Source: Mayamaea pseudoterrestris (lineage: Eukaryota). Taken from it: 64,000 nucleotides of DNA. The stretch's first letter is position 1, and every line of letters begins with the position of its first letter. The position numbers and the translations under genes were made by a program. The notes under the pieces were generated by a model. That model had not been told where the DNA came from. It searched no databases and was given only the letters and a program-made list of their open reading frames with translations. The stretch is from the NCBI GenBank assembly GCA_027923505.1, contig BROI01000015.1, positions 62,001-126,000 of the forward strand. Direction: 5' to 3'. Shown in pieces: positions 15,001-45,880 of this stretch.

Positions 15001-18000
15001 TGTCACCAGTCTCAGCCCCGCGATGCCGTGACATTCAAACGCCCCTACAGCAAGCCCTGTAGGTGTCCAAAATACACCAGAATGGTGCCCATCATTATTC
15101 AGGCTGTGCTACAAGATGGTAGGCTTGGCTGGTGTCTCAGGGGATGGCAATGTATTTGGTGACAACTTGTCACCAGTCTCAGCCCGCGGCCCGTGACATT
15201 CAAACGCCTACAGCAAGCCCTGTAGGTGCCCAAACTACACCAGAATGGTGCCAACATCAATATTCCTGCTGCGCTACAAGATGGTAGGCTTGGCTGGTGT
15301 CTCAGGGGATGGCAATGTGTTTGGTGACAACTTGTCACCAGTCTCAGCCCCGCAGATGCCGTGACATTCAAACGCCCCTACAGCAAGCCCTGTAGGTGCC
15401 CAAAATCCCAGAATGGTGCCAACATCATTATTCAGGCTGCGCTACAAGATGGTAGGCTTGGCTGGTGTCTCAGGGGATGGCAATGTGTTTGGTGACAACT
15501 TGTCACCAGTCTCAGCCCGCAGATGCCGTGACATTCAAACGCCCTACAGCAAGCCCTGTAGGTGCCCATAATACACCAGAATGGTGCCAACATCATTATT
15601 CAGGCTGCGCTACAAGATGGTAGGCTTGGCTGGTGTCTCAGGGATTGGCAATGTATTTGGTGACAACTTGTCACCAGTCTCAGCCCACAGATGCTGTGAC
15701 ATTCAAACGCCCTCAGCAAGCCCTGTAGGTGCCCAAAATACACCAGAATGGTGCCAACTTCATTATTCAGGCTGCGCTACAAGATGGTAGGCTTGGCTGG
15801 TGTCTCAGGGGATGGCAATGTATTTGGTGACAACTTGTCACCAGTCTCACCGCAGATGCCGTGACATTCAAACGCCCCTACAGCAAGCCCTGTTGGTGCC
15901 CAAAATACACCAGAATGGTGCCAACATCATTATTCCGGCTGCGCTACAAGATGGTGGCTTGGCTGGTGTCTCAGGGATGGCAATGTATTTGGTGACAACT
16001 TGTCACCAGTCTCAGCCCCGCGATGCCGCGACATTCAAACGCCCCTACAGCAAGCCCTGTAGGTGCCCAAAATACACCAGAATGGTGCCAACATCAGTAT
16101 TCAGGCTGCGCTACAAGATGGTAGGCTTGGCTGGTGTCTCAGGGGATGGCAATGTATTTGGTGACAACTTGTCACCAGTCTCAGCCCGCAGATGCCGTGA
16201 CATTCAAACGCCCCTACAGCCAAGCCCTGTGGTGCCCAAAATACCCAGAATGGTGCCAACATCATTATTCAGGCTGCGCTACAAGATGGTGGCTTGGCTG
16301 GTGTCTCGGGTGGCAATGTATTTGGTGACAGCTTGTCACCAGTTCCGATGCCGTGCATTCAAACGCCCCTACAGCAAGCCCTGTAGGTGCCCAAATTACA
16401 CCAGAATGGTGCCACATCGTTCTTCAGGCTGCGCTACAAGATGGTAGGCTTGGCTGGTGTCTCGGGGGTGGCAATGTTTTGGTGCAACTTGTCACCAGTC
16501 TCGCCCGCGGATGCCGTGACATTCAAACGCCCCTACAGCAAGCCCTGTAGGTGCCCAAAATACACCAGAATGGTGCCAACATCATTATTCAGGCTGTGCT
16601 ACAGGATGGTAAGCTTAGCCGGTGTCTCAGGCGATGCAAATTTATTTGGTGACAACTTGTCCCCATGCTCACCCGCAGATGCCGTGACATTCAAATGCCC
16701 CTACAGCAAGCCCTGTAGGTGCCCAAATTACACCAGAATGGTGCCAACATCATTATTCAGGCTGCGCTACAAGATGGTAGGCTTGGCTGGTGTCTCAGGG
16801 GATGGCAATGTATTTGGTGACAACTCGTCACCAGTCTCAGCCACCAGATGCCGTGACATTCAAACGCCCCTACAGCAGCCCTGTGGTGCCCAAATACACC
16901 AGAATGTTGCCAACATCATCATTCAGGCTGCGCTACAAGATGGTAGGCTTGGCTGGTGTCTCAGGGGATGGCAATGTATTTGGGCAACTTGTCACCAGTC
17001 TCGCCCGCAGATGCCGTGACATTCAAACGCCCCTACAGCAAGCCCTGTAGGTGCCCAAATTACACCAGGATGGTGCCAACATCATTATTTAGGCTGCGCT
17101 ACAAGATGGTAGGCTTGGCTGGTGTCTCAGGGATGGCAATGTTTTGGTGACAACTTGTCACCAGTCTCAGCCCCAGATGCGCGCGACATTCAAACGCCCC
17201 TACAGCAAGCCCTGTAGGTGCCCTCCAAAACACCAGAGTGGTGCCAACATCTTATTAGGCTGCGCTACACGTGGTAGGCTTGGCTGGTGTCTCAGGGGAT
17301 GGCAATGTATTTGGTGACAACTTGTCACCAGTCTCAGCTGCACAGATGCCGTGACATTCAAACGCCCCTACAGCAAGCCCTGTTGGTGCCCAAAATACAC
17401 CAGAATGGTGCCAACATCATTAATCAAGCTGTGCTACAAGATGGTCAGCTTGGCTGGTTTCTCAGGGGATAGCAATGTATTTGGTGACAACTTGTCACCA
17501 GTCTCAGCTGCACAGATGCCATGACATTCAAACGCCCCTACAGCGAGCCCTGTAGGAGCCCAAAATACACCAGAATGGTGCCAACATCATTATTCAGGCT
17601 GCGCTACAAGATGGTCCGGGTGGCATTTGGTGCCGTCACAGTCTCAGCCCGCTGCCGCGACATTCAAACACCCCCCCTGTGGTGCCCAAAATACACCAGG
17701 AATGGTGCCAACATCATTATTCAGGCTGCGCTACAAGATGGTAGGCTTGGCTGGTGTCTCGGGGATGGCAATGTATTTGGTGACAACTTGTCGCCAGTCT
17801 CAGCCCCGCAATGCCGTGACATTCAAAGCCCTACAGCAAGCCCTGTAGGTGCCCAAAATACACCAGGATGGTGCCAACATCATTAATCAGGCAGCGCTAC
17901 AAGATGGTAGGCTTGGCTGGTGTCTCAGGGATGGCAATGTATTTGGTGACAACTTGTCCAGTCTCACCGCAGATGCCGTGACATTCAAGCGCCCCTACAG

Positions 18001-19890
18001 CAAGCCCTGTAGGTGCCCCCCAAAACACCAGTGGTGCCAACATATTATTCAGGCTCGCTACACGATGGTAGGCTTGGCTGGTGTCTCGGGGGATGGCAAT
18101 GTATTTGGTGACAACTTGTCACCAGTCTCCCACCAGATGCCGTGACATTCAAACGCCCTACAGCAAGCCCTGTAGGTGCCCAAATTACACCAGAATGGTG
18201 CCAGCATCATTATTCGGCTGCGCTACAAGAGGTGGCTTGGCTGGTGTCTCGGGGATGGCAATGTATTTGGTGACAACTTGTCACCAGTCTCCCCCAGATG
18301 CCGTGACATTCAAACGCCCCTACAGCAAGCCCTGTAGGTGCCCCAAATTACACCAGAATGGTGCCAACATCATTATTCAGGCTGCGCTACAAGATGGTGG
18401 CTTGGCTGGTGTCTCAGGGATGGCAATGTATTTGGTGACAACTTGTCACCAGTCTCAGCCGCAGATGCCGTGACATTCAAACGCCCCTACAGCAGCCCTG
18501 TAGGTGCCCAAAATACACCAGAATGGTGCCAACATCATTATTCGGGCTGCGCTACAAGATGGTGGCTTGGCTGGTGTCTCAGGGCATGGCAATGTATTTG
18601 GTGACAACTTGTCACCGTCTGCGCCCGCAGACGCCGTGACATTCGCCCCTCCGCAAGCCCTGTGGGTGCCCAGACACCAGGATGGTGCCAGCATCATTAT
18701 TCCGGCTGCGCTACAGATGGTGGCTTGTCTGGTGTCTCGGGGTGGGAATGTATTTGGTGACTTGTCTGTCTCCTGATGCCGCGACATTCAAACGCCCTGC
18801 TCGCCCTGTCGGTGCCCAAATTCCCGGTGTCTCTTTCAGGCTGCGCTACAAGATGGTGCTTGGAAACTGGTGTCTCAAGGGTTGGCAATGTATTTGGTGA
18901 CATTTTGTCACCAGTCTCCCACGTGCCGCGACATTCGCCCGGCCAACCCAGACAGAATGTTGCAATTATTCCTCGCTCAGTGGGGCGCATTTTTGGTGAC
19001 AACTTGTCTCCGTCTCCATTGTGTCGCGACATTCAACGCCCCTCCGCCCATTCGCAGCATGGTGCCAACATCATTATTCAGGCTGCGCTACAAGTTGGTG
19101 AGGCTTGAGCTGGTGTCTCGGGGATGGCAATGTATTTGGTGACGGCTTGTCACCAGTCTCCCCGCAGATTCCGCGACATTCAAACGCCCTACAGCAAGCC
19201 CTGTAGGTGCCCAAATTTCACCAGAATGGTGCCAACATCATTATCAGGCTGCGCTACAGATGGTAGGCTTGACTGGTGTCTCAGGGGATGGCAATGTATT
19301 TGGTGACAACTGTTCACTCCACCCCTCACCCTGTCATACCTGCCAATCGTATTCGGCTGCGCTACAGTGGTATGTGATTTGGTGACAACTTGTCGCCAGT
19401 CTCAGCCTGCGGATGCCGCGACATTCTGCGCCGCCCTACCAAGCCCTGTAGGTGCCCAAATACCGTGCCAATCATTATTCGGCTGCGCTACAGATGGTAG
19501 GCTTGGCTGGTGTCTCGGGGATGGCAATGTCTTTGTGACACTTCTGCGCAGATGCCGGACATTCAACTGCCCCTACAGCAAGCCCTGTGGTGCCCAAATT
19601 CTCCAGATGGTGCCAACACATCTTTTCTAGGCTGCGCTACAAGTGGTTGGCTTGGCTGGTGTCTCAGGGGATGGCAATGTATTTGGTGCGACTTGTCCCA
19701 GTCTCAGCCCAGATGCCTTGACATTCAAACGCCCCTACGCAACCCTGTATGCCCAAATTCACGGTGCCCATCCTATTCCAGCTGCGCTACAAAGCCGTGT
19801 CCAATTTCCTGGCAGTCTTTGGTCTGTCCCCCCCGTGCTGTGACATTCAAACACTTTTTGGCAGGCCATGACCCAAATGACACCAGAATG
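1..19890 (+). repeat. 169-bp satellite tandem array, forward polarity (continues past window start); candidate centromeric/pericentromeric satellite
   Basis: Monomer ...ccgtgacattcaaacgcccctacagcaagccctgtaggtgcccaaaatacaccagaatggtgccaacatcattattcaggctgcgctacaagatggtaggcttggctggtgtctcaggggatggcaatgtatttggtgacaacttgtcaccagtctcagcccgcagatg recurs with a 169-nt period (ORF-track starts 1308, 1477, 1646...). Centromeric role is inference only. Confidence 0.97.
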
Positions 19891-20213: not shown

Positions 20214-20505
20214 CGACAGCAATGGCTGCACTAGCAAATGCTTCTCACTCAATAGGATTTAATGGAGACTGTTATTAAGAGCAACAACAAGAGCAAAGGA
20301 CTCGAGTAATTGCAACTGCTACAACAACGAAGGCGTTGGTGATTAACTGAGAGGATTTAATTAACTGCTATTGATTTACCTCGCTCGCCCATCGTGGGCA
20401 TCACGATTGCTCGTCCACGATGCCGTTGGGGCGTCAACTTACACATATAGTAAGAGAGGTGCTTGCACCTCGGTAGGAAGGTAGGATACACCTTCAACTT
20501 CGACT
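20214..20505 (-). repeat. 3' LTR (truncated at its distal end)
   Basis: 292-bp match to 28221-28512; lacks the terminal CTGGAAATCTTCACT present in the 5' LTR. Confidence 0.9.
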
Positions 20506-20520
20506 CTCCCTCGCTATCTC
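20506..20520 (-). other. Polypurine tract
   Basis: GAGATAGCGAGGGAG on the minus strand, between the pol stop codon and the 3' LTR. Confidence 0.75.
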
Positions 20521-20528
20521 GTGCTGGG

Positions 20529-23500
20529 TTAATTGCGCTGGACAGCTAAGCGATTCTTGATGAAGGAATCACGTGGGAGGCCCTTTGTCAGATAGTCTGC
20601 TAACTGGTTGGTCGTGTCGACCTTAAGGACTTCAAATTCACCGCGCTTGTAATGGCTCCAGAACCAATGGAACTTGACCAGAAAGTACTTAGTGCGGTTG
20701 GTCAACTTGTGGTTGATGGCTAAATAGTAGGCGCCTTGATTGTCTTCAAAGACGCGAGCCTTGATGGAAGTCTTGAGAGGGGATGGCACATCTAGAACGG
20801 CAATCACCTCGGATAGAATTCGCTTTAAAGGAAGCAAAGTCTTGAGGGCAAAGGAGAGGGCGCTGTACTCGGCTTCAAGAGTCGAGAGCGAAATCTCCGT
20901 CTGCAACTGGGATTTCCACACTAACGGACAACCAGACAGCAAGATGATGTACCCAGTGCGGGATCGAACTGAGACTGGCAATTCATCTGGTTCCCGTCGA
21001 TGGAGACCGGCAAAATCAGCATCAACGTAGAGATCTAAGGCGAGAGTTCCCGTTGGCTTGATAACTGTGCCATGATTACGCGTGCCTTTGAGGTAGCGCA
21101 CAATCATTTTAACTGCAGCGGCATGAGACTGCTTTGGAGCAGCATTGAACCGAGCAGCTTGACTGACAGCGTATGCGATGTCGGGTCGAGTATTGATTGA
21201 CAAGTAAAGTAGCATTCCAACAATGGACGAGTAGCCCCAAGTTTCCTTCATGCCGGGACCATGGGGATCCGAGCCGAGAGCCAAGAGACTTGTTGGTGTC
21301 AAAGTTGGATTGCAATTAGTCATATTGGCAGACGCAACAATCTTGTCAATCAATCCTGGCTGGGTCAAGGTAATGGTACCTGCCTTGTCGTCGCGCTCCA
21401 TTTTAATTCCAAGGTATTCACACAGGGAGTCTTCCTTGGTAAGCTCAAAACCGAGAGCGCGAAGCTTTTCAATGAAGGCATCGACAAGCTTGGATGTCTT
21501 AGCGACAAAGATGGAATCGTCCACAAAGCAACACATCACCAAGTTCTTTCCATAGAACAAACAAGGATCAAAGTAGCTTTGTTTCAGACCGAGCTTGATA
21601 AGGGCTGCCTTCAAATGCTCAAACCATAGCCGAGGGGCTACAGTCAATCCGTAAAGACTCTTTAGGAGGCGCAAACACATGCCGGAGCCTTTACTCGTGT
21701 GAAAACCTCGAGGGAGATGGATCCACACTGGATCATGGAGCTCGGCTTGGACAAATGCACTGGCAAAATCCGTGGAGCAAGCATACCAGTTAAGGTTAAG
21801 GGCTAGAATCAACATCAATCGGATGGTCGACCATGCCACAACTGGTGCGTACGTTTCAAAGTCGCCTTCTTGCAGATCACCTCGAACGCAATAGCGAGCT
21901 TTGTATTTCTTAATCGTCCCATCTGGGGAGCGCTTACGGCGAAACACCCAAGTACCTGGAAGAATTTTGGTCTTGGCTTCCGACTTGGGGACTTCAGTCC
22001 ATGTTCCTTTGGACTCCAACGATTGAATCTCCTTCTCGGCGGCAGCTTGCCAATGCTTCACATGAGCATGATCAGCCATGGCTTGATCCCAAGTTAAAGT
22101 ATCTGGATCCGATGCGGCAGCCTTGTAGAGGGCTGGAGCAGCAATATTAAACGCAGCAAAGTAGGAGACGAAACTGGCGTCACAAACTGACTCGATTTGG
22201 GCTCCGGAGGCGTCGTAAGAGAGGCGGGATGGCTTCTTAGAGGCGCGACTGGAACGGCGAGTACTTGGCGTAGCTGTTGGAGCTGGTGGATTCTCCCTCG
22301 GAGACTCATTGTTGGAGACCGAAGATGGCGATGGATCAGCTGGCAGCTCCCTTGGAGGCGAAGATTCATCTTGCACTTCAATTGGAAGCTCCCTCGGAGA
22401 CTCGGGCTCCCTCGCTTGGGCGGGCTCTTGGCTTGGTGCTGACGAAGGCGGCGCTGGCAACTCAGCAGGAGGAGGGACTTGCAAATCTCGAGGAGGAGCA
22501 TGGCGCTCAAAAGCATCCCGAACGGCATCCGCTCGAGTGGAGACGGCAGGCTCAGGCTCGAATTCAGCAGAAGCAATGGCTTCATCTTCATCATCCAATG
22601 GGATATACTGAAGAGACGTGTTTCCAAAGAGATTATACCACTCAGTGGAGGCAAAATCCGGCATTTGCGACTCAGTTACAGCCACAGTGGCAAACCAATC
22701 ATCAAAGACGACGTGAAACTGCGGCGTAATGGCGCCCGAGTGCGGATTTAAAACCAAAGGAACGGAGCTAGCATGGGCTTCACTCATTCCAACAAAGATG
22801 CAGCGATGGGACCGCGGCTGCCAACGGGGCAACTTGTGGCCGTCCGATATCGTTTTATCAAGGACATATACTGGAGACCCCCAAACGTGCAAGTCATGGA
22901 ACTTGGAATGGGGCCATCGAGTGCGAGTAAAGATATCTTGGGGAGAAAGGCCGCTCTGTAGATTAGGGACCTTGTTCCAAAGATACACGGCATGCTTGGT
23001 GACCATGGGCCAAAGTGAAACATCGGCGACATCGGGCCAATGGATCTTAGCATGCATCAACATGGCGCGCGAAATAGACATAATGGTCTGTATGCAACGC
23101 TCGGCAATCCCATTATGATGGTGAGCGCCGACTCCAGCAAGCGCACTGACTTGATGGAAAGTTGTAAGATGCTTGGAGAAGCCTTGTGACGTAAAGGCAC
23201 CACCATTGTCGGAGAGATACTCGAGGGGAATGACTCCAACATCACGGCAGAACAACTCGAAAGCTTCTTTAGATCTTAATGTATCATCCGTATTTAAATG
23301 CTGTTGCAGCTCAAGATGAACGTAGCCGGATGCATGATCAACAAACACACATCCTCCAGTGTTCATGGCAGTTTCCTTTGTCTTGCCACGCGAGGAGAAA
23401 AGGCGTCCTTTTGTAGAGCAAACAAAGTGATCAACGGAGATGCGCTGGCCTGGGAGAAGGTTGTCTCGGCGCAAAGCATCAACTCGGTCTTTAACAACTT

Positions 23501-26500
23501 TGGTTGTTTGACCAGGAGAGGAACGCACTCGCTGCTTGGCATACATGCAGGCGGTGCACTTGGGGCATGGCTGCAAAGTTGCGCAAGCTCTATGGAGACG
23601 GCGTGCCGACTCAGAATTAGCAAGCGTTCCACCACGCATTAGAAACTGAATGGTTTTAAAGTTCAAATGGCCAAGACGGAAATGCCAACGGAGCAATTCC
23701 TTTTCAGCCTCAGACAAGTTGGTATTCGAGCTGGCGACGGTGGAGCTTTGGCTTGGCGGTGGTCTTGGCTCACGGCGAGGGCGTCTGGTGGGCGCACTTG
23801 CTCCTCCATCACTTGGAGGACCATCGGCTGGCGGTGGACCGCGCGGCGGCTGCTGAGCAGGAGCTGGACCAGGACCAGGACCAGGCGGAGGCAAAGGCGC
23901 CTCGCCAGCGCTGTAAGAACTTGGCATGCCACTGAGATCGTATGCGATAGCAGTCGGCAAGTTGGTAAGAGGATCAATTGGAGCCTCAACACCATCATTC
24001 GTTATAGAGCCATCCTTGTGGACTCGCTCCACAGAACCGCTCAAGTAGATAGCTCGGCGATCGGCATATATAACTTCATTTGGATACTGTTGCAGCAATC
24101 CTGGCATACTCAACAGACGCACTTTGGCCTCAGGAATCCAGTATGCTGGAACCTTTACTGTGCGAAGCATGCCTCCATTGTCAAGAAAGCTCCAGGCGAC
24201 AAACCCTTTGCCTTTAACTCGACCATCTTTGAAGAGACCATTCAAACGAACAGTTGGCGCTGGCTGAATGGGGCCAACAAAGTCGTCGCGGCTTGGCGAA
24301 ATGGAGATGCTTGCTCCTGAATCCCAGATTACTGGCAGCATCTTGTCCTTCTCCTTGCACGGTGGTGCTGGCGGGGACTTGCGATATTTATTGTTAAAGA
24401 GAGATTGGCTCAATGTTGGTATATTCGGCTGGGCAGATTCCAAGTGGGACACTTGGTAGGCTTCTCCAAAATCGTCGAAATCTGAAAAATCCCCAAACAC
24501 AACAGACGCAAACACCTCTTGTGGCATTGGATCAATTGATTGAATTGAAGCTTGCGGCACTGGTGGAGGCAAAGGCGTTGGCGCCTTGTCAGTTTTAAAG
24601 CGGAACGGTTGACGCCGACTGGCTTGCCGCTCCCGATCTGCATGAGCTCTACTGAAGTAGGTGACTCCATCAGGCGTTGTAATCAATGGATCATTACGCC
24701 AGTGATCATTACGCCAATCACGATTGCGAATCCGATGGCGCTCTTCATATTGATAAAGAAGCGTATCATTTAGCCATGCGTTCCAATCTTCCTCTTGGGC
24801 GCGAAGGCGGTCACTGATTATATTCTCGTAAGCCTCATTAACTTGATTGGCAGCTTGAGCTTGTCGAAAGGTTGAACGGAGAGCCTCAGCGCGAGCATTA
24901 ATTACCAAGGGCGGAGCAACGGCAACTGCGTGGGCAGTCCGAGGGCGCCATGGTTGGTCGCTAGCTGGGCGACGGCGCGGCACTTGGCTTTGGTCTGGGC
25001 CTTGGCGAGGACGCTGGCGATGGCGCTGCGCTTGGTTTGGACTTGGGCGTGGGCGCTGTCCATGGTTTCGACCATTGCGATGATGCTGCTGAGCACGGTT
25101 TCTTGGTTGGACTCGAGCTGGGCCTCGTCTTCGAGCATGCAAATGCCATGGCTCTCCCTCGTTGGAAGGCAACCTGCATAAAATGGTGCGCAAGAAGGCA
25201 AGGCACTTGGCTTGGAGACGCAAAAACCAAGGGATTACCCGCTTCCGAAACCGACGGAGACGGTGAAACCGATGGAATAAGAAGCGGAACCGTTGGTACC
25301 TTGAAACAGAGCGACGATTGCGGCGATCTTGATGGAGATAGAAGCGACGATGGCGTCGATCCGAATGCCGAGGAGGCGTTGCAGGTGGCTTCCAAAATAT
25401 CAAGGCAATGGCGACACTAGTGAGCGTCAACCAAAGAAGCCCAGGCACCATCAAACGCCAATGATGGTAAATCAAACGGCCGATGACATGGACAAGAGAA
25501 AGGCTCTCGCAACCAACTGTCATGATGGAATGGCCAAGTTGATCAGCCAAATGGAGACTCTCGCCAAGGGCAGCTGTTGTATTGGCAAACTGCTGGGCCA
25601 CAGCAGTATGCAAAGCCTGAGTCTCAGTTGCGTTATTTGAACGAACAAGAGATGAAACAGTTCGAGTCACAGTGAAGAATGCCTCACTTAAAGTCGAATG
25701 GCTCACAGGCAGGTCCGAAGCTGGGCGCTTAACCAATCGAGCTGCTGAGCACGAATTCACCAAGCAAATCAATCCAATCATAAGCACAAATGAAAGTGCA
25801 CTTGGAGAGAGACTGCGAGAGCGACGGTAAAGCACCTTGTTTGGCTTGGTAGGGCGCTTGGCAGATGGCTCGGAGCTGGGGCTCGAAGGAGGCGTCCAAG
25901 CTGGAGCAGCAGGATTCAACTTAGCAATCTTTGCAGGGGGAGCGTTAACACCACTTGCAAGCTCCCTCGCTTGAATAGCTGCATTCCGAGCAAACTGCAC
26001 ATCAGACTCATAGCGATCATCACTAGGAGAGCGCTCAATATTGCAGAGCTTGGCGACAATGGCCGCTGGCGTATGCTCATCAATGATCATTGGATCATCG
26101 GCAACAATGGAAGCAATGGCATCCTCGCCGTCCACCATGGCAGACGCAATCTCGTCAATGACATCTTCTTCACCTTCTTCAAGAGAACAATCGTCATTGG
26201 CTAAAGCAAGGGCTTTGGCGTCAGCGGCGGCTTGGGCGCAAGCTGATGGATCCTCGATAGCTAGATAGGCAGCTGGCGTGTCAAACCAAGCAAGATGACC
26301 ACCATTGGGAGCAGCAGCCGGAGCAGATTTACTTTCAGTGTGCTCGTCAGTGCCATGGTTAAGTTGCCACTTGTTGCAATGCGCGCACCAATGGTAGGTC
26401 TTTCCTCCCTTTTCAATGGTAGATGGCTGCGATGCTGAAGGAGCAATTCGCCGCCATGGCGCATGGTAGTGATGGACATCGTCAATGGCCTTTGACAAAG

Positions 26501-28094
26501 CACCCTTTCCACTCTTTGGAGCAGTCTTGGCCTTCCCTTTTCCATTTCCTTTGGGAGCGCCGCGCTTGTTGCTGGTTTTCACGGTCGTTGCCTGTGGGCA
26601 ATCGCGCTGATAATGGCCGGGCTTATGGCAAATGTGACAAGTCTTCTCCTCCTTTGCTCCCCTTCCGTTTGCCTTGGCTTTGTCAAGTTGAACAACGCCT
26701 CCAAAGGCAGGCGGAATGGCAGTCTTGTCGCGCGGATTCTTGGCGGGAACCCAGTCATTGGCCGCATGAATCTGGCGGTAAGCAGTATTAGCTACCTGCG
26801 CCAAATCCTTTAATGTTAGATGCTCACGCGTCATGTAAGCATCCTGATCCGTTGGAGTCATATTCGAGCAAGCTTTCAAGCCAATGACATGCTTAGCTTT
26901 CCAAGCTTTCATTTCGTCAATGAACTCCTCGCCGCCAGTGTTTTCAAGGCAGCGCTCGCCTCCTGCTTGGAGAAGGTTTTTCAACACTTTGGTGGTCAGG
27001 GAATGCGGATACTGACCCGCATTAATTAATGGCTTTGCTTTGATAATAAGCGCATCCATGTAGGTGGTAATGTTTTGGCCTGGCTCCGCTTGCGGCTTGT
27101 AGGCGGCGACTTCTTGTTCCACTTTCAAGTACCAGTCGCGGGATTGGTGAAGAATCATCTCCATTACTTGGAAATAGACGACACAGAAGCTATCCTGGGC
27201 GCTAGCGCTGGTATAATGATCCAGGCGCGTGCGAAGCTCCTCGTTGCACGAATTCTTGAAGAATCTAATGAGATCCTTGTCGTTGCCGCGATCATATTCG
27301 TCGTAGCTGGCGACGAAAGGAGCAATGGCTTCCTTGACCGACTCAATGCTCTCGAACAGCGAATAATATTGAAGGAAATTAACCAACTTGGTCTTGGTTG
27401 GATCGCGCGGGTCGATGACGTAACAATATGTGTCGTTGCCACAGAGCTCCGCCTGTTCCTTAAAGAGCATTTGTTGATGCTGCAAGTTGCATGTCAACGT
27501 AAACTTCGTTGGAAGTCCTTTCTGCCGCTCTTGTTGCTTTGAATCGTTCAAGGGACGAAGCATCAACGAGTTGCTTGGCTTGGCTCCGTCGGCGACTGGC
27601 TTTTCCAATCCCGACCAATCCACATTTGGTGGACCGCCGCCCATGCATGCCGCTCGCTCCTTGGTGGAGATTTGGACGACAGTGCCCATGATGGGTTTGT
27701 TTGGCGTGTACACTTGGACAGGTGCGCGATGCTGACGCAGCATCTCTTTGGCGATTTCGGAATCCATGTGTTTGGCGATGGCTTCGTCGACGACACGCTG
27801 TCGGTCACGCGCGGCTTCTTCCATTGCCTGACGAACGGCGTCATCGATGGCAGCCTGCTGCTCTTGCTTGGCTTTGAGCTGAGCAGCAATCTTCATCTGC
27901 TGCTGTTGTTCGTTATACAGCTGGCGAATTTCATCCTCGGCGTCTCGCTCAGCTTGGGTGAGCTTGGCGCGTCGTTCACGTTCCACCCGATTGATCATTT
28001 CGGTTCGCTGGACTTCGGCAGCTTGTAGGAGCGTGCGCTGGTCATCCGTCAACTGGACGGGAGGCCGTGGTGGTGTTGGCGTTCCTGGCGCCAT
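20529..28094 (-). CDS. Copia Gag-Pol polyprotein (2521 aa)
   Basis: Zinc knuckle CHICHKPGHYQRDC; protease IWDSGAS; pre-integrase WHFRLGH...CPKC; integrase ISVDHF/SDNGG/NGIAER; RT KKYKARYCVRGD, KSLYGL, FVDD; RNase H YVDADFAG, STLEAEY, EDNQGA, QLADYLTK. Confidence 0.96.
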   Translation of the reverse strand: MAPGTPTPPRPPVQLTDDQRTLLQAAEVQRTEMINRVERERRAKLTQAERDAEDEIRQLYNEQQQQMKIAAQLKAKQEQQAAIDDAVRQAMEEAARDRQRVVDEAIAKHMDSEIAKEMLRQHRAPVQVYTPNKPIMGTVVQISTKERAACMGGGPPNVDWSGLEKPVADGAKPSNSLMLRPLNDSKQQERQKGLPTKFTLTCNLQHQQMLFKEQAELCGNDTYCYVIDPRDPTKTKLVNFLQYYSLFESIESVKEAIAPFVASYDEYDRGNDKDLIRFFKNSCNEELRTRLDHYTSASAQDSFCVVYFQVMEMILHQSRDWYLKVEQEVAAYKPQAEPGQNITTYMDALIIKAKPLINAGQYPHSLTTKVLKNLLQAGGERCLENTGGEEFIDEMKAWKAKHVIGLKACSNMTPTDQDAYMTREHLTLKDLAQVANTAYRQIHAANDWVPAKNPRDKTAIPPAFGGVVQLDKAKANGRGAKEEKTCHICHKPGHYQRDCPQATTVKTSNKRGAPKGNGKGKAKTAPKSGKGALSKAIDDVHHYHAPWRRIAPSASQPSTIEKGGKTYHWCAHCNKWQLNHGTDEHTESKSAPAAAPNGGHLAWFDTPAAYLAIEDPSACAQAAADAKALALANDDCSLEEGEEDVIDEIASAMVDGEDAIASIVADDPMIIDEHTPAAIVAKLCNIERSPSDDRYESDVQFARNAAIQARELASGVNAPPAKIAKLNPAAPAWTPPSSPSSEPSAKRPTKPNKVLYRRSRSLSPSALSFVLMIGLICLVNSCSAARLVKRPASDLPVSHSTLSEAFFTVTRTVSSLVRSNNATETQALHTAVAQQFANTTAALGESLHLADQLGHSIMTVGCESLSLVHVIGRLIYHHWRLMVPGLLWLTLTSVAIALIFWKPPATPPRHSDRRHRRFYLHQDRRNRRSVSRYQRFRFLFHRFHRLRRFRKRVIPWFLRLQAKCLAFLRTILCRLPSNEGEPWHLHARRRGPARVQPRNRAQQHHRNGRNHGQRPRPSPNQAQRHRQRPRQGPDQSQVPRRRPASDQPWRPRTAHAVAVAPPLVINARAEALRSTFRQAQAANQVNEAYENIISDRLRAQEEDWNAWLNDTLLYQYEERHRIRNRDWRNDHWRNDPLITTPDGVTYFSRAHADRERQASRRQPFRFKTDKAPTPLPPPVPQASIQSIDPMPQEVFASVVFGDFSDFDDFGEAYQVSHLESAQPNIPTLSQSLFNNKYRKSPPAPPCKEKDKMLPVIWDSGASISISPSRDDFVGPIQPAPTVRLNGLFKDGRVKGKGFVAWSFLDNGGMLRTVKVPAYWIPEAKVRLLSMPGLLQQYPNEVIYADRRAIYLSGSVERVHKDGSITNDGVEAPIDPLTNLPTAIAYDLSGMPSSYSAGEAPLPPPGPGPGPAPAQQPPRGPPPADGPPSDGGASAPTRRPRREPRPPPSQSSTVASSNTNLSEAEKELLRWHFRLGHLNFKTIQFLMRGGTLANSESARRLHRACATLQPCPKCTACMYAKQRVRSSPGQTTKVVKDRVDALRRDNLLPGQRISVDHFVCSTKGRLFSSRGKTKETAMNTGGCVFVDHASGYVHLELQQHLNTDDTLRSKEAFELFCRDVGVIPLEYLSDNGGAFTSQGFSKHLTTFHQVSALAGVGAHHHNGIAERCIQTIMSISRAMLMHAKIHWPDVADVSLWPMVTKHAVYLWNKVPNLQSGLSPQDIFTRTRWPHSKFHDLHVWGSPVYVLDKTISDGHKLPRWQPRSHRCIFVGMSEAHASSVPLVLNPHSGAITPQFHVVFDDWFATVAVTESQMPDFASTEWYNLFGNTSLQYIPLDDEDEAIASAEFEPEPAVSTRADAVRDAFERHAPPRDLQVPPPAELPAPPSSAPSQEPAQAREPESPRELPIEVQDESSPPRELPADPSPSSVSNNESPRENPPAPTATPSTRRSSRASKKPSRLSYDASGAQIESVCDASFVSYFAAFNIAAPALYKAAASDPDTLTWDQAMADHAHVKHWQAAAEKEIQSLESKGTWTEVPKSEAKTKILPGTWVFRRKRSPDGTIKKYKARYCVRGDLQEGDFETYAPVVAWSTIRLMLILALNLNWYACSTDFASAFVQAELHDPVWIHLPRGFHTSKGSGMCLRLLKSLYGLTVAPRLWFEHLKAALIKLGLKQSYFDPCLFYGKNLVMCCFVDDSIFVAKTSKLVDAFIEKLRALGFELTKEDSLCEYLGIKMERDDKAGTITLTQPGLIDKIVASANMTNCNPTLTPTSLLALGSDPHGPGMKETWGYSSIVGMLLYLSINTRPDIAYAVSQAARFNAAPKQSHAAAVKMIVRYLKGTRNHGTVIKPTGTLALDLYVDADFAGLHRREPDELPVSVRSRTGYIILLSGCPLVWKSQLQTEISLSTLEAEYSALSFALKTLLPLKRILSEVIAVLDVPSPLKTSIKARVFEDNQGAYYLAINHKLTNRTKYFLVKFHWFWSHYKRGEFEVLKVDTTNQLADYLTKGLPRDSFIKNRLAVQRN

Positions 28095-28192
28095 GGTTTT
28101 GACTCGAGTGTGATTAAAGCTTTGGCTTCTGTCTTAGTTGCTTGCTTGGGCGTGCACTCCCTTGGCAAGACGACGAACTGCAGAAGAACCGT

Positions 28193-28205
28193 GGGGCTCG
28201 TAACC
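28193..28205 (-). promoter_or_regulatory. Primer-binding site, half-tRNA-iMet (copia/Ty5) type
   Basis: GGTTACGAGCCCC directly after the 5' LTR; resembles the GGTTATGAGCCC/GGTTATGGGCCC PBS complementary to the tRNA-iMet anticodon arm, with one mismatch. Confidence 0.7.
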
Positions 28206-28512
28206 AGTGAAGATTTCCAGCGACAGCAATGGCTGCACTAGCAAATGCTTCTCACTCAATAGGATTGAATGGAGACTGTTATTAAGAGCAACAACAAGAG
28301 CAAAGGACTCGAGTAATTGCAACTGCTACAACAACGAAGGCGTTGGTGATTAACTGAGAGGATTTAATTAACTGCTATTGATTTACCTCGCTCGCCCATC
28401 GTGGGCATCACGATTGCTCGTCCACGATGCCGTTGGGGCGTCAACTTACACATATAGTAAGAGAGGTGCTTGCACCTCGGTAGGAAGGTAGGATACACCT
28501 TCAACTTCGACT
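28206..28512 (-). repeat. 5' LTR (307 bp)
   Basis: Begins AGTCGAAG at the satellite junction and ends CTTCACT just before the PBS; contains a TATA-like CTTACTATATGTG. Confidence 0.88.
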
Positions 28513-31500
28513 ACTGGTGACAAGTTGTCACCAATGTCATTGCTGTCCCCTGAGACACTAGCCAGGCATACCATCTTGTAGCGCAGCCTGAATAATGATG
28601 ATGGCACCAATCTGGTGTCATTTGGGTATATTCATGGCCTGCTGTAGGGGCGTTTGAATGTCACAGCATCCGCAGGCTGAGACTGGTGACAAGTTGTCAC
28701 CAATATCATTGCTGTCCCCTGAGACAATAGCTAGGCATACCATCTTGTAGCGCAGCCTGAATAATGATGTTGGCACCATTCCAGTGTCAATTGGGTGTAT
28801 ACATAGCCTGCTGTAGGGGCGTTTGAATGTCACGGCATCTGCAGGCTGAGACTGGTGACAAGTTGTCACCAATATCATTGCCGTCCCCTGAGACACTAGC
28901 CAGGCATACCATCTTGTTGCGCAGCCTGAATAATGATGTTGGCACCATTCTGGTGTCATTTGGGTGTATACAGGGCCTGCTGTAGGGGCGTTTGAATGTC
29001 ACGGCATCTGCAGGCTGAGACTGGTGACAAGTTGTCACCAATATCATTGCCGTCCCCTGAGACACTAGCCAGGCATACCATCTTGTAGCGCAGCCTGAAT
29101 AATGATGTTGGCACCATTCTGGTGTCATTTGGGTGTATACATGGCCTGCTGTAGGGGCGTTTGAATGTCACGGCATCTGCAGGCTGAGACTGGTGACAAG
29201 TTGTCACCAATATCATTGCCGTCCCCTGAGACACTAGCCAGGCATACCATCTTGTTGCGCAGCCTGAATAATGATGTTGGCACCATTCTGGTGTCATTTG
29301 GGTGTATACATGGCCTGCTGTAGGGGCGTTTGAATGTCACGGCATCTGCAGGCTGAGACTGGTGACAAGTTGTCACCAATATCATTGCCGTCCCCTGAGA
29401 CACTAGCCAGGCATACCATCTTGTTGCGCAGCCTGAGTAATGATGTTGGCACCATTCTGGTGTCATTTGGGTGTATACATGGCCTGCTGTAGGGGCGTTT
29501 GAATGTCACGGCATCTGCAGGCTGAGACTGGTGACAAGTTGTCACCAATATCATTGCCGTCCCCTGAGACACTAGCCAGGCATACCATCTTGTAGCGCAG
29601 CCTGAATAATGATGTTGGCACCATTCTGGTGTCATTTGGGTGTATACATGGCCTGCTGTAGGGGCGTTTGAATGTCACGGCATCTGCAGGCTGAGACTGG
29701 TGACAAGTTGTCACCAATATCATTGCCGTCCCCTGAGACACTAGCCAGGCATACCATCTTGTAGCGCAGCCTGAATAATGATGTTGGCACCATTCTGGTG
29801 TCATTTGGGTTGCCGTCCCCTGAGACACTAGCCAGGCATACCATCTTGTAGCGCAGCCTGAATAATGATGTTGGCACCATTCTGGTGTCATTTGGGTGTA
29901 TACATGGCCTGCTGTAGGGGCGTTTGAATGTCACGGCATCTGCAGGCTGAGACTGGTGACAAGTTGTCACCAATATCATTGCCGTCCCCTGAGACACTAG
30001 CCAGGCATACCATCTTGTAGCGCAGCCTGAATAATGATGTTGGCACCATTCTGGTGTCATTTGGGTATATACATGGCCTGCTGTAGGGGCGTTTGAATGT
30101 CACGGCATCTGCAGGCTGAGACTGGTGACAAGTTGTCACCAATATCATTGCTGTCCCCTGAGACACTAGCCAGGCATACCATCTTGTAGCGCAGCCTGAG
30201 TAATGATGTTGGCACCATTCTGGTGTCATTTGGGTGTATACATGGCCTGCTGTAGGGGCGTTTGAATGTCACGGCATCTGAAGGCTGAGACTGGTGACAA
30301 GTTGTCACCAATATCATTGCCGTCCCCTGAGACACTAGCCAGGCATACCATCTTGTAGCGCAGCCTGAATAATGATGTTGGCAATATTCTGGTGTATTTT
30401 GGGGACCTACAGGGCCTGCTGTAGGGGCGTTTGAATGTCACGGCATCTGCAGGCTGAGACTGGTGACAAGTTGTCACCAATATCATTGCCGTCCCCTGAG
30501 ACACTAGCCAGGCATACCATCTTGTTGCGCAGCCTGAATAATGATGTTGGCACCATTCTGGTGTCATTTGGGTGTATAAATGGCCTGCTGTAGGGGCGTT
30601 TGAATGTCACGGCATCTGCAGGCTGAGACTGGTGACAAGTTGTCACCAATATCATTGCCGTCCCCTGAGACACTAGCCAGGCATACCATCTTGTAGCGCA
30701 GCCTGGATAATGATGTTGGCACAATTCTGGTATCATTTGGTTGTATACATGGCCTGCTGTAGGGGCGTTTGAATGTCACGGCATCTGCAGGCTGAGACTG
30801 GTGACAAGTTGTCACCAATATCATTGCCATTGCCTGAGACACTAGCCAGGCATACCATCTTGTAGCGCAGCCTGAATAATGATGTTGGCACCATTCTGGT
30901 GTCATTTGGGTGTATACATGGCCTGCTGTAGGGGCGTTTGAATGTCACGGCATCTGAAGGCTGAGACTGGTGACAAGTTGTCACCAATATCATTGCTGTC
31001 CCCGGAGACACTAGCCAGGCACACCATCTTGTAGCGCAGCCTGAATAATGATGTTGGCACCATTCTGGTGTATTTTGGGCACCTACAGGGCTTGCTGTAG
31101 AGGCGTTTGAATGTCACGGCATCTGCGGGCTGAGACTGGTGACAAGTTGTCACCAATATCATTGCTGTCCCCTGAGCCACTAGCCAGGCATACCATCTTG
31201 TAGCGAAGCCTGAATGATGATGTTGGCACCATTCTGATGTCATTTGGGTGTATTAAATGCCTGCTGTAGGGGCGTTTGAATGTCACGGCATCTGCAGGCT
31301 GAGACTGGTGACAAGTTGTCACCAATATCATTGCCGTCTCCTGAGACACCAGCCAAGCCTACCATCTTGTAGCGCAGCTTGAATAATAATGTTGGCACCA
31401 GTCTGGTGTAATTTGGGCACCTACAGGGCTTGCTGTAGGTGCGTTTAATGTCACGACATCTGCGGGCTGAGACTGGTGACAAGTTGTCACCAAATACATT

Positions 31501-31768
31501 GCCATGCCCTGAGACACCAGTCAAGCAAACCAACTTGTAGCGCAGCCACAATAATAATGGTGGCACCATTCGGGTGTATTTTGGGCACCTACAGGGCTTC
31601 CTGTAGGGGCGTTTGAATGTCACGTCATCTGCGGGCTGAGACTGGTGACAAGTTGTCACCAAATACATTGCCATGCCCTGAGACACCAGCCTAGCCTACC
31701 ATCTTGTAGCGCAGCCTGAATAATGATGTTAGCACCATTCTGGTGTCATTTGGGTATATACATGGCCT
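28513..31768 (-). repeat. 169-bp satellite, reverse polarity, homogeneous variant subfamily
   Basis: Reverse complement of the left-hand monomer with diagnostic changes (ccaatatcattgccgtcc, acactagccaggcatacc, gtcatttgggtgtatacatggcc); 169-nt period. Confidence 0.97.
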
Positions 31769-31769
31769 A

Positions 31770-31786
31770 GTTAGGGTTAGGGTTAG
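31770..31786 (+). repeat. Interstitial telomere-like tract G(TTAGGG)2TTAG
   Basis: gttagggttagggttag lies between a broken 169-bp monomer and the 172/180-bp repeat. Confidence 0.75.
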
Positions 31787-32502
31787 TGGGTTGTTGGGTG
31801 ATCAGGGGACGGGACATTGTAGTGGTATGATTCCATAATTTGGGGTGTTGGCCACACCCATTTTGCAGATGGTGTAGGCCTCCAGGCAGTCCGTTTTGCA
31901 CCATTTCAGCCCATCCTCATGTCAATGGCACACCCTGGACATGTTTTGCCTGACTCATTGGGTTGTTGGGTGGCCAGGGCATGGGGCATTGTAGTGGTAT
32001 GATTCCATAATTTGGGGTGTTGGCCACACCCATCTTGTAGACCATTCCATGCTGTAGGCCTCCAGGCAGTCCGTTTTGTACCATGTCAGACCATCCTCAT
32101 GTCAATGGCACACCCTGGACATGTTTTGCATGACTCATTGGGTTGTTGGGTGATCAGGGGACGGGGCATTGTAGTGGTATGATTCCATAATTTGGGGTGT
32201 TGGCCACACCCATTTTGCAGATGGTGTAGGCCTCCAGGCAGTCCGTTTTGCACCATTTCAGCCCATCCTCATGTCAATGGCACACCCTGGACATGTTTTG
32301 CCTGACTCATTGGGTTGTTGGGTGGCCAGGGCATGGGGCATTGTAGTGGTATGATTCCATAATTTGGGGTGTTGGCCACACCCATCTTGTAGACCATTCC
32401 ATGCTGTAGGCCTCCAGGCAGTCCGTTTTGTACCATGTCAGACCATCCTCATGTCAATGGCACACCCTGGACATGTTTTGCATGACTCATTGGGTTGTTG
32501 GG
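31787..32502 (+). repeat. Second tandem repeat: alternating 172- and 180-bp units (352-bp dimer x2)
   Basis: Units start with tgggttgttggg at 31787, 31959, 32139, 32311 and 32491; units 1 and 3, and 2 and 4, are near-identical. Confidence 0.93.
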
Positions 32503-33432: not shown

Positions 33433-34734
33433 TTATAATAAAATGGCGCCTTCAATGGCCTTTAAGGTCAGGCGTCCAACTTCGTGGGTACTTTCCCGCA
33501 GGTAGTGTTGTACCGACGGTGGAGACCAGCGTAGTCGAAAGGCAATCTCCTCAATGGAGAGGCCTGCGTTTTGCAAAGCCACTGCAGCTGTGACTCGATT
33601 CGAATGAGCCACAATGCTGGTGATATTCTGGCGCAGAAAGTGGTTTGGGTCGGGGTATGCTCCAACCACCACCTGCCGCATGACTTTAATGATATCGCGC
33701 GACTGCAAGTACTCGTAAGCGCCAGTGGCATCTTTACGAAAGACTCCAAGCGGCTCACGAAATGCTTTCTTGTGTAGTTGTTGGGCGCGGGAAAGGATGG
33801 AAAGACTCGCCGCTATAGGGCAAATGAAAGGATGGCCCGACCGACGATACCGACGAATGGTGAAGTTGTGTTGGCTCTTATCGTATCGAAAACGTAGGCG
33901 CAATTCGTATGCCTGGCTGCCATCTTGCAGGAGTGCGCTATGGCTAATGAGCACGTTGTGTTTGGAGTAGAAAGTAAAATCCAAGTCGACAAAGGCAAGT
34001 GGTTGGTGCGCCCATTCGCCCGCGTCTTGGGTTGGCGGTACCTTGCTGAAGCAACCGCGTTTCGCTGTAGTCTGTGCGTACTCGTTTGCCCTGGAACCGG
34101 TAAAGGCCCCGAGGCAAGTCCAGTCGAAGACTGCTGCCTCCAAATCAAGCGCATGGCGAACGTCTGTGTGGATGAGGCGCTTGAGTTTGGAGTAGAGGAA
34201 CGCAAACATACTGTGGGTGTATGGCTCGCGCTTTTCCCGCGCATGTTGCCACTTGCGGCGACTGGACAAGATATCATCTAAAACTGGATGAAGGCCACTG
34301 CCGCGAGGGTCATTGATGGAGAAGCGCCGATTGAGTGCAGTTTCAAGTAGTGCATGCGCCGCTCTGAGGTATCCACTGAGCGTCTTCACCTTGAGCGGCT
34401 GTGGTTCATCAGTGCTCTGTCGGCGCAGCGCCCGTTTGTCCACTGCCAAGGATGTCTCGCCAGAGGAGACAGCATATAGATAGCTGGCTAGGACCGGGAT
34501 TTCTTGCCCCGGTGCGATTGACGCGAAAGACTGGTCGTTGAATCCTGCTTTAAGACTCCATTTTCCAAAATGCGAGGCGCGCTGGTCAAACGTGCGATCG
34601 TTGTGGGACCGAATGTCTCCTCGTTGGCGGTGTTGTTGATCACTGACGAGATAACTGTAAGCAGCTTGGACTCGACCAGGAAGACCTTGCAATTGGCTAA
34701 CACCTGCGTTTCCGGCGAGATAACGGATGCCCAA
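33433..34734 (-). CDS. Tyrosine recombinase (true start uncertain; overlaps the 3' end of the RT/RH ORF)
   Basis: Catalytic motifs GSRANEY (R), RYDKSQ (K), AHSNR (HxxR), LRWS...VQHYLR (W, Y); CPI motif typical of DIRS-type YRs. Confidence 0.93.
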   Translation of the reverse strand: MGIRYLAGNAGVSQLQGLPGRVQAAYSYLVSDQQHRQRGDIRSHNDRTFDQRASHFGKWSLKAGFNDQSFASIAPGQEIPVLASYLYAVSSGETSLAVDKRALRRQSTDEPQPLKVKTLSGYLRAAHALLETALNRRFSINDPRGSGLHPVLDDILSSRRKWQHAREKREPYTHSMFAFLYSKLKRLIHTDVRHALDLEAAVFDWTCLGAFTGSRANEYAQTTAKRGCFSKVPPTQDAGEWAHQPLAFVDLDFTFYSKHNVLISHSALLQDGSQAYELRLRFRYDKSQHNFTIRRYRRSGHPFICPIAASLSILSRAQQLHKKAFREPLGVFRKDATGAYEYLQSRDIIKVMRQVVVGAYPDPNHFLRQNITSIVAHSNRVTAAVALQNAGLSIEEIAFRLRWSPPSVQHYLRESTHEVGRLTLKAIEGAILL

Positions 34735-37292: not shown

Positions 37293-37355
37293 CTCGTCTC
37301 GCCGATCGGCGAGCGGCGCCGCCGCCGCCTGGCGTGCTACTGGCGATGGTGGTTG

Positions 37356-40808: not shown

Positions 40809-40867
40809 GATCGAGAGAAATGAGGGAAGGAAAGCTGAGAAACGCGGTTCGAGCAACAAAGGCAAGA

Positions 40868-41101
40868 ACAAACAAACAAACAAGCTGGCTAGACAACAGG
40901 GTTGGCAAGCAAGCAAGCAAGAGGAATGAGAGGCATCGGATGGGGATCGGCAACTTGGTCTGTGGTTGTCCGTCCTCCATTGATGTCGCATCTGACGTGT
41001 CCCGAACCATCGATGATGTGTGTATCACTCAGAGTGTACTCATAAGGTATCTTATGAGTGTCCCCAAGGCAGTCTCCTCTAAACATCCGCCCTGAGCCGA
41101 A
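40868..41101 (-). repeat. 5' terminal repeat A1 of YR element copy 1
   Basis: Matches A2 (32730-32963) and A1/A2 of copy 2; begins TTCGGCTCAGGGCGG. Confidence 0.92.
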
Positions 41102-42145: not shown

Positions 42146-42442
42146 TTCGGCTCAGGGCGGATGTTTAGAGGAGACTGCCTTGGGGACACTCATAAGATAC
42201 CTTATGAGTACACTCTGAGTGATACACACATCATCGATGGTTCGGGACACGTCAGATGCGACATCAATGGAGGACGGACAACCACAGACCAAGTTGCCGA
42301 TCCCCAGCCGATGCCTCTCATTCCTCTTGCTTGCTTGCTTGCCAACCCTGTTGTCTAGCCAGCTTGTTTGTTTGTTTGTTTGTTCTTGCCTTTGTTGCTC
42401 GAACCGCGTTTCTCAGCTTTCCTTCCCTCATTTCTCTCGATC

Positions 42443-45400: not shown

Positions 45401-45880
45401 AGTCGGCCATTACCAGCCGATATTCTGCCGGCCAAAACACAAACACACCCTCCACATCCACCGGCGCAACCAGCTCACCAGCACAACAATAATAACCCGC
45501 GTGGAAACTTGGGACAGCCACAGGGGACATCTGCGCAACGCCAGCAACGACACGGCATCGCAAATCGCCAGTATCGCTCATAAAATGCATCGGCGAGGAC
45601 GAGCCTTCGGTTGCAGCCATCCGGGCCATCCTCAATGGCTTAACTAGTTCAGACATCAAGTGTACCAGTGGCCAACAGCGCGCGTTGCTTTCCGTTCATT
45701 GTACAAATGCGAGGTGCGAGGTGCAAAAACAATTGTCGACAATGCGAAATCAATCTCCGGGCAACTGTCAATCCATGGACGCGCACTATGCTTGTTCCGT
45801 TCATGACTTTCCTTAACAGAGAGCCCGTCAAGCGCAAGTTCGAGCCAACAGAGGCATTCACTCGTTTCATGGCAGCTTGA
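42443..45880 (+). pseudogene. ORF1 gag-like, frameshifted near 45530-45670
   Basis: Matches copy 1 ORF1 until ~LGQPQG, then continues in other frames (CFPFIVQ...EAFTRFM at 45668-45880). Could be consensus error. Confidence 0.7.

Follow-up and report, generated by a model that had tools for sequence, protein, structure and literature searches.

In the genome scheme of the International Committee on Taxonomy of Viruses (ICTV), Ty1/copia long terminal repeat (LTR) retrotransposons (Pseudoviridae) encode a Gag that comprises capsid and nucleocapsid (NC) and a Pol that comprises protease (PR), integrase (IN) and reverse transcriptase with RNase H (RT-RH); in sireviruses an Env-like product is added as a third open reading frame (ORF) after gag-pol (PMC8515867). 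The Gag and Pol products of the standard copia scheme are soluble, and membrane proteins enter it only as rare extra ORFs. For the Ty1 element of yeast, the account in PMC3945221 describes translation of the element RNA on ribosomes bound by the signal recognition particle (SRP), with targeting to the endoplasmic reticulum (ER) nucleating the assembly foci; a block of ER translocation prevents the RNA from coalescing into retrosomes, the presumptive sites of assembly. Diatoms harbor their own Ty1/copia lineages, the CoDi elements, which are reported to be abundant and transcribed in marine plankton (PMC5029228). Here we describe a Ty1/copia element from the diatom Mayamaea pseudoterrestris that carries two hydrophobic helices inside its Gag-Pol polyprotein. 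The element lies in a 64,000-nucleotide stretch of contig BROI01000015.1 (positions 62,001 to 126,000; hereafter the window), where it occupies bases 20214-28512 of the minus strand as one intact copy of 8299 bp. All coordinates below are window positions, and all features of the element are on the minus strand. We lean toward the view that the segment is the window's version of a helix-loop-helix membrane hairpin that follows a pair of CCHC and CCHH zinc fingers, precedes the protease and tethers Gag-Pol to an endomembrane in a large clade of diatom Ty1/copia elements.

The window's element resembles the CoDi lineages as described in the main text of PMC2806351 in being an LTR element with the order PR-IN-RT, a single Gag-Pol frame and, as among young CoDi copies, identical LTRs. 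It differs in that its 8299 bp slightly exceed the length range of 5182-8062 bp given there, and neither a hairpin nor a CCHH finger is described in that main text. The words "transmembrane" and "hydrophobic" have no occurrence in the main text of PMC2806351, PMC7017206 or PMC5029228, nor has "membrane" in that of PMC2806351. Searches of open-access papers and bioRxiv turned up no account of transmembrane (TM) helices encoded in frame between NC and PR in any copia polyprotein. The combination of a hairpin between NC and PR with a CCHH second finger looks to be undescribed in a copia element.

In a Kyte-Doolittle (KD) hydropathy scan of the 2534-residue polyprotein with a 19-residue window, only two stretches exceed a value of 2.0, at amino acids (aa) 774-797 (2.12) and aa 893-914 (2.14); the one other value of at least 1.6 in the whole polyprotein, 1.67, lies within the reverse transcriptase. 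The first hydrophobic helix, which we call TM1, spans aa 779-797 (25743..25799) and aligns with the TM1 of the relatives. The second, TM2, spans aa 894-914 (25392..25454) and carries an (A/V)-P-x-L-W motif with a near-invariant tryptophan, Trp901. The loop between them (25455..25742, aa 798-893) is 96 aa long, is predicted to be helical and contains two N-glycosylation sequons, NAT at 25626-25634 and NTT at 25575-25583. An earlier model reading of the letters and ORF translations (the original prediction) had placed two hydrophobic helices within 1-2 nt of these coordinates. It had also given the order of zinc knuckle, basic stretch, helix 1, loop, helix 2 and Arg-rich tail that we find here.

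AlphaFold2, using a 31-row alignment, predicts helices at aa 777-801, with a block pLDDT (predicted local distance difference test) score of ~70, and at aa 892-913 (~92-94). The loop is also modeled as helical (block pLDDT 72-94), and an Arg-rich helix follows TM2. The net charge is +7 in the 20 aa before TM1, +1 across the 96-residue loop and +8 in the 30 aa past TM2. This pattern bears out the positive-inside arrangement of the original prediction, whose topology would keep both Gag and Pol in the cytosol. Integral-membrane helical hairpins, a class defined by how its members work and not by homology, are characterized by a pair of hydrophobic helices of span length, a short connecting loop and a positive-inside bias, all of which are found here, the short loop in most relatives. 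In addition, TM2 and its flanks match the relatives P0185 (E = 4e-6) and P0005 (E = 1.4e-4), similarities that are weak but significant. Over aa 766-914 (149 codons) the coding frame contains no stop, versus 11 and 6 stops in the other two frames of the strand. We considered whether the region might be an intron or a non-coding insert and rejected this idea on the strength of the stop-free frame and of related contigs whose listed indels are in frame, one 1-bp gap excepted.

As relatives we used the 120 top-ranking proteins of a search made with Pol alone (aa 1260-2534), a choice that is independent of the hairpin region. The best Pol relatives are 45-63% identical to the window's; the four that carry an organism name share 48-63% identity with it across Pol and all come from diatoms, one from Mayamaea pseudoterrestris, two from Fragilaria crotonensis and one from Cylindrotheca closterium. 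With the window's protein included, 91 of the 121 sequences have the CCHC knuckle as well as a D[ST]GA[ST] protease motif, the other 30 being mostly cut at the N terminus or carrying variant motifs. Between knuckle and protease, at least one segment with a KD value of at least 1.6 is present in 86 of the 91 (one in 42, two in 40, three in 4 and none in 5), and the first segment starts a median of 123 aa past the knuckle (interquartile range (IQR) 117-141). Such segments have a density of 3.43 per 1000 aa within the interval versus 0.48 outside it. Composition-preserving shuffles of the intervals, 100 for each, gave a segment in 590 of 9100 cases (6.5%), versus 86 of the 91 real ones. The five sequences without a segment have the same hydrophobic stretches just under the threshold. 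When the threshold is lowered to 1.2, every one of the 91 has at least one segment, and a tally that counts stretches of at least 40 aa as two spans gives exactly two spans in 57, one in 8 and three or more in 26. The segments are 19-30 residues long with KD values of 2.0-2.7, have Trp or Pro at their boundaries and are accompanied by a basic cluster on one side. Judged by these comparisons, the hairpin is a clade-wide part of the polyprotein and not a private insert. The segment is not missing from sister elements, as it might have been had the original prediction been wrong, and it stands at the same position in those 86 with the TM2 Trp near-invariant. The word "insert" used there does not hold, as the window's copy is an expanded version of a module found across the clade.

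The same numbers bear on the idea that the hairpin is neutral baggage, a functionless stretch tolerated within a long linker. It is the part of the polyprotein that drifts fastest, and the CCHC-to-protease interval that contains it ranges from 269 to 1025 aa among the relatives, both of which would suit a stretch of no consequence. Such a stretch would hardly retain its hydrophobic hairpin at a constant offset in 86 of the 91 lineages, given that their Pol shares 45-63% identity with that of the window and that only 6.5% of shuffles produce a segment, nor would it keep a near-invariant Trp and Pro. We regard neutral baggage as extremely improbable.

The order of parts conserved across the clade is the CCHC knuckle, the CCHH finger, a D-P-S-x-W motif, TM1, the loop, TM2 with its (A/V)-P-x-L-W motif, Pro and an Arg/Lys cluster, and many families add an H-G-L-H-R-x-Y-P-x-R-L-R motif after this basic cluster. 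The CCHH pattern is present in 82 of the 91 sequences, and its Trp, two Cys and two His are invariant in a 31-row alignment, A1. In the window it forms a second finger domain (26235..26471, aa 555-633) with the core W-C-x2-C-x2-W-x4-H-x4-H at 26340-26390 (aa 582-598). This domain is the sole part of the window's interval with significant phmmer similarity to the relatives (E 1e-9 to 1e-14), and it is modeled by AlphaFold2 with a block pLDDT of 83-97, whereas Pfam gave it no match at threshold. The window's TM1 and TM2 share alignment columns in A1 with those of the relatives. Trp901 is near-invariant in A1, in ten full-length polyproteins and in 21 other short proteins, and the Pro that follows it is near-invariant in three alignments. 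The charge of the relatives has a median of +4 in the 30 aa past the hairpin and of -2 in the 20 aa before it, and the C-terminal side is the more positive in 77 of 86.

Searched with the A1 profile, a set of 1.84 billion cluster representatives yielded 1157 matches at E <= 1e-3, 431 at E <= 1e-10 and 71 at E <= 1e-30; several of the 1157 cover the hairpin and basic part alone (profile positions ~93-286) with E values of 1e-20 to 1e-30. Among 144 new representatives, 89 have a CCHH finger with at least 110 aa beyond it, and a hydrophobic segment lies a median of 60 aa past the finger in 80 of these 89, a count that is not independent because the search profile itself included the hairpin. For P0122, a typical short-loop member, the predicted fold has helices of 23 and 33 aa, in this order, joined by a 4-aa turn (block pLDDT 62-87). 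A complete relative on a metagenome contig has one 2244-codon frame running through its hairpin. A scan of viral contigs found no relative.

The window's copy departs from this common plan chiefly in length. Its CCHC-to-DSGAS distance is 772 aa, versus a median of 407 aa (IQR 381-445), and is the second longest of the 91; given the relatives' median, only about half of the interval is extra. The original prediction was right that a long region separates knuckle and protease, and it underestimated this region at ~600 aa. The extra length is made up of a 132-aa linker before TM1, the 96-aa loop and a long Arg/Gln/Pro-rich stretch past TM2. The linker (25839..26234, aa 634-765) is acidic and Ala-rich, with 24 Asp plus Glu and 27 Ala in 132 aa. 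It is not present in the aligned relatives, as its columns in A1 are occupied by the window's sequence alone, and a near-identical copy, the protein P0255, has it at 97% identity. Beyond TM2, a Pro-rich exit and Arg-rich tail (24924..25391, aa 915-1070; 40 Arg in 156 aa) corresponds to the basic cluster that follows TM2 in the relatives. It is succeeded by a spacer before the protease (24348..24923, aa 1071-1262) of no recognizable family. One related 6-kb contig (run X1) carries a 15-bp in-frame deletion in this spacer, at 24689, and with three synonymous and four non-synonymous listed changes the spacer region appears loosely constrained.

The extra parts of the window's copy matched no Pfam family, PDB sequence or solved fold. 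Pfam gave two sub-threshold rows only at E <= 10, and the best E value of a PDB sequence search over aa 634-1262 was 0.15. A word-indexed search among long proteins found no homologue of aa 620-1260 and, when queried with the module alignment, gave a single protein that was already known, relatives being masked by chance word matches; a search of the ESM Atlas gave no usable match. The structural comparison suggested with the original prediction, carried out with Foldseek on a 455-aa model, gave no PDB match at E <= 0.001 among 64 at E <= 10, the best rows being weak zinc-finger matches (SBP-type) to the CCHH part. The enlarged, presumably lumenal, loop and the acidic linker are probably lineage-specific additions in the window's element.

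This loop is the basis of the mini-envelope explanation, in which it would be a glycosylated ectodomain exposed in the ER lumen or on enveloped particles. The window's loop, with its 96 residues, its predicted helices (block pLDDT 72-94) and its two sequons, is what such an ectodomain might look like. As read from its sequence, TM1 also has the layout of a signal anchor, with a basic n-region, a hydrophobic core and small residues before the loop. The loop is not a conserved feature, however: in the 44 proteins with two separate segments its median length is 16 aa, the window's, at 91 aa in this comparison, being the longest, and only 4 of the 44 loops have a sequon. The NAT and NTT sequons noted in the original prediction are indeed present, but their number is at chance level, as 1070 of 10,000 shuffles of the loop give at least two. 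Comparison with the sister families already suggests that the long loop is lost elsewhere. Neither the fold nor the sequence matched any envelope. The ectodomain that characterizes retroviral and sirevirus Env, with its surface and transmembrane subunits, fusion peptide and glycosylation, has no counterpart in the clade, where the loop is short or absent in most relatives. The Env-like ORF of plant sireviruses is comparable in being a membrane-spanning product encoded by a Ty1/copia element, but the known copia Env-like genes are, in the ICTV scheme, separate ORFs past pol (PMC8515867), whereas the diatom spans are encoded within Gag-Pol itself, in frame between its NC and PR. We consider a mini-envelope very unlikely. 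The original prediction had offered a membrane anchor or a mini-envelope and called the module glycoprotein-like; the anchor is supported by our data, and the envelope and glycoprotein parts are not.

The window's element has close copies in related contigs from four runs, two studies and four organism labels, at ~95-99% identity, and contigs from three of the four runs cross the TM-module region without listed indels. The indels that are listed are in frame (15 bp at 24689 and 3 bp at 28099), apart from one gap of 1 bp, which occurs in a low-depth contig (2.9). Eight runs were listed as containing the sequence, none of them of RNA. Synonymous changes account for 31 of the 40 substitutions listed, a listing that reaches to 25152 and does not extend into the hairpin. 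In the sole usable DNA pair of relatives (96% identical, from a three-locus subfamily alignment), the hairpin has two synonymous and no non-synonymous changes, which are too few to judge. Across 14 close pairs, 344 of the 496 substitutions within the hairpin leave the sign of hydropathy unchanged. Fast drift in which hydrophobicity, position, Trp, Pro and a basic exit are all kept is, at the level of sequence, the pattern of a lipid-facing anchor and not that of a binding domain or an enzyme. The sequence would drift fast while the feature persists because only hydrophobicity, the Pro/Trp motif and the basic exit are needed.

This pattern also helps in weighing a non-membrane role for the segment, either as a buried oligomerization or assembly spacer between NC and PR, comparable to the spacer peptides of retroviral Gag, or as a degron or aggregation signal that lowers Pol relative to Gag. 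Copia elements with a single ORF need a means to make Gag in excess over Pol, and a regulatory spacer would meet this need; the location of the segment exactly at the Gag/Pol boundary would suit it, and the 95%-identical Gag copy P0255 stops right at the start of TM1. The physical character of the segment points the other way. Its length, its KD values, its Trp/Pro edges and its one-sided basic cluster are typical of membrane spans and atypical of soluble helical bundles, and the tolerance of substitutions as long as hydrophobicity is kept argues for lipid contact over protein packing. A non-membrane spacer is, in our estimation, an improbable explanation.

P0255 itself, a protein of 780 aa from the representative library, is 95% identical (743/781) to the window's Gag over aa 14-794 and diverges from about aa 767. 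Over its last ~24 residues it follows a different frame of the DNA that encodes TM1, as would result from the loss of 23 nt (GT...AG; 25813-25835) just before TM1; the product is then Gag alone and terminates where the membrane module begins. Among the indels listed for the DNA contigs from the four runs there is no 23-nt gap or joint of this kind. P0255 may come from a copy with a deletion or, speculatively, from splicing that adjusts the ratio of Gag to Pol.

Several observations weigh against the membrane hairpin that we favor. The proposed insertion of TM1 and TM2 into a membrane is inferred from hydropathy, helix prediction and charge. At a KD value of at least 1.6, 42 of the 91 sequences have a single segment, although 11 of these segments are at least 40 aa long; the two-span topology is the mode and is not universal. 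The N-terminal flank of TM1, basic in the window, is not basic in the relatives. The hairpin is also the least conserved part of the polyprotein, with a median identity of 57.6% in 14 close pairs; in these pairs the fingers reach a median of 79.5%, the next 60 aa 73.3%, the remainder up to the protease 71.0%, Pol 86.1% and the N-terminal part of Gag 87.4%. As the fastest-evolving part, it appears to be under weak constraint at the level of single residues. Over aa 915-1260 the changes listed for the window's own family are three synonymous and four non-synonymous. Finally, the apparent absence of the module outside the clade is taken from the ICTV genome scheme and general knowledge of copia elements, with no outgroup copia lineages in the comparison.

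In the mechanism that we propose, completion of Gag and the emergence of TM1 would lead to targeting of the nascent chain to the membrane of the ER or the nuclear envelope. TM1 and TM2 would then insert as a hairpin, with the strongly basic stretch past TM2 on the cytosolic side, and the N-terminal Gag and the C-terminal PR-IN-RT would both remain cytosolic yet tethered to the membrane. Such tethering would concentrate Gag-Pol and the RNA under translation on a two-dimensional surface, which would favor particle assembly and dimerization of the protease. Polyproteins of positive-strand RNA viruses contain hydrophobic hairpins that anchor the neighboring soluble domains on the cytosolic side of the ER. 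The analogy with these unrelated viruses is functional only, and no sequence or fold similarity to them was found.

The proposed logic of bringing a translating genomic RNA to a membrane is shared with yeast Ty1. Ty1 differs, as far as the account in PMC3945221 goes, in that its Gag is translocated into the ER lumen and that no membrane-spanning hairpin is described between its Gag and Pol; the diatom signal would instead be hard-wired. A bolder proposal would have this clade of diatom Ty1/copia elements be membrane-anchored replicators, in which the hairpin acts as an SRP signal anchor. It would deliver the genomic RNA, while this is being translated and has its Gag joined to it in cis, to the membrane of the ER or the nuclear envelope and nucleate assembly there. 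This would be a hard-wired form of the Ty1 route, which has no recognizable signal, and in lineages such as the window's the lumenal loop would have enlarged to a small helical ectodomain, perhaps an early stage of an envelope-like function arising inside gag-pol and not by capture of an env gene. Taken as a whole, we judge this proposal quite unlikely.

A further possibility is that the segment is released by the protease as a two-span membrane protein, resembling a viroporin or a small fusogen, that permeabilizes, bends or fuses membranes during particle traffic, nuclear entry or cell-to-cell passage at mating. A short-loop hairpin with a polybasic patch right behind its second helix does resemble small viral membrane proteins, and LTR elements do recruit short membrane modules: examples are the sORF2/FAST-like proteins of insect Ty3/gypsy elements, as presented in 10.1101/2025.03.14.642691, and the two-TM ORF3 of the bdelloid element Vesta4, as presented in PMC5408684. 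The diatom module shares with the sORF2/FAST-like proteins the polybasic patch right after the span (+8 in the window, a median of +4 in the relatives), and with both sORF2 and Vesta4 a divergence too great for homology searches, so that they are recognized by their features. The known cases, so far as these two sources describe them, are separate ORFs, and the sORF2/FAST-like proteins are small, with a single N-out/C-in span and an N-terminal myristoylation motif. Neither the single span nor the myristoylation motif is a feature of the diatom module, which is in frame with no N terminus of its own, has two spans and belongs to another superfamily. The fast drift of the sequence also speaks against a specific pore or fusion surface. 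We regard release as a separate membrane protein as unlikely.

The remaining parts of the element are those of an ordinary copia retrotransposon. Its 5' LTR (28221..28512) and 3' LTR (20214..20505) are direct repeats of 292 bp that flank the coding region and are 100% identical, the match ending exactly at the LTR ends on both sides; a purine-rich tract lies just upstream of the 3' LTR on the element strand. An 18-nt stretch whose complement ends in CCA, resembling a tRNA 3' end, is a candidate primer-binding site, 14 nt past the 5' LTR and not adjoining it (28180-28220). The single Gag-Pol frame (20529..28133) has 2534 codons from stop to stop, with the first Met at 28092-28094. The CCHC zinc knuckle (26598..26639, aa 499-512) has Cys499, Cys502, His507 and Cys512 invariant in 10 aligned polyproteins and is detected by Pfam below threshold at aa 497-514. 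The protease active-site motif (24309..24332, aa 1268-1275), with DSGAS at aa 1271, is likewise invariant in the 10. The integrase region (22698..23747, aa 1463-1812) matches the Pfam families gag_pre-integrs (E = 1.4e-8, aa 1463-1534) and SH3_retrovirus (E = 4.6e-7, aa 1745-1812), and the reverse transcriptase (21291..22004, aa 2044-2281) matches RVT_2 (E = 1.1e-39). We assign the element to Ty1/copia because of its order Gag, PR, IN, RT; the Pol order PR-IN-RT/RH with a copia-type RT and the direct LTRs are those of that group.

No target-site duplication and no TG..CA LTR ends were recognized at the element, both flanks of which are satellite arrays. One of them begins right at the 5' LTR (28371-31798) and consists of ~19 tandem copies of a 169-bp unit, whose identity reaches 99%, and the opposite flank (17008-19700) holds a looser repeat family with a spacing of ~166 bp. 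A tblastn search with the polyprotein found no further copy in the rest of the window. Elsewhere in the window, an inverted pair of near-identical large repeats (33433-41024 on the minus strand and 42359-48607 on the plus strand) carries consecutive ORFs, of 1222, 955 and 506 aa in the left copy and interrupted in the right. They bear no relation to the copia polyprotein, and Pfam gave no match to them at E <= 0.001. An RT-like A-D-D motif can be made out by eye in the ORF of 955 aa, and the pair may be an unclassified retroelement. Two host ORFs lie on the plus strand near the end of the window, one at 59468-60352 with a weak WD-repeat (WDR36/Utp21) match and one at 62345-63466 with U1snRNP70_N and RRM_1 domains. 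The latter is a U1-70K-like gene, and its presence at 62.3-63.5 kb identifies the window as nuclear eukaryotic DNA.

The middle third of these elements now matches no family, and the combination of CCHC and CCHH fingers, hairpin and basic exit offers a new signature for annotating it. The hairpin also offers a straightforward way of testing at what sites and by what route the retrotransposons of diatoms assemble, and a comparison case for the SRP/ER link of yeast Ty1. If our reading is true, the conservation of a hairpin inside the polyprotein of a large family would mean that retrotransposons of ecologically dominant algae assemble on membranes.

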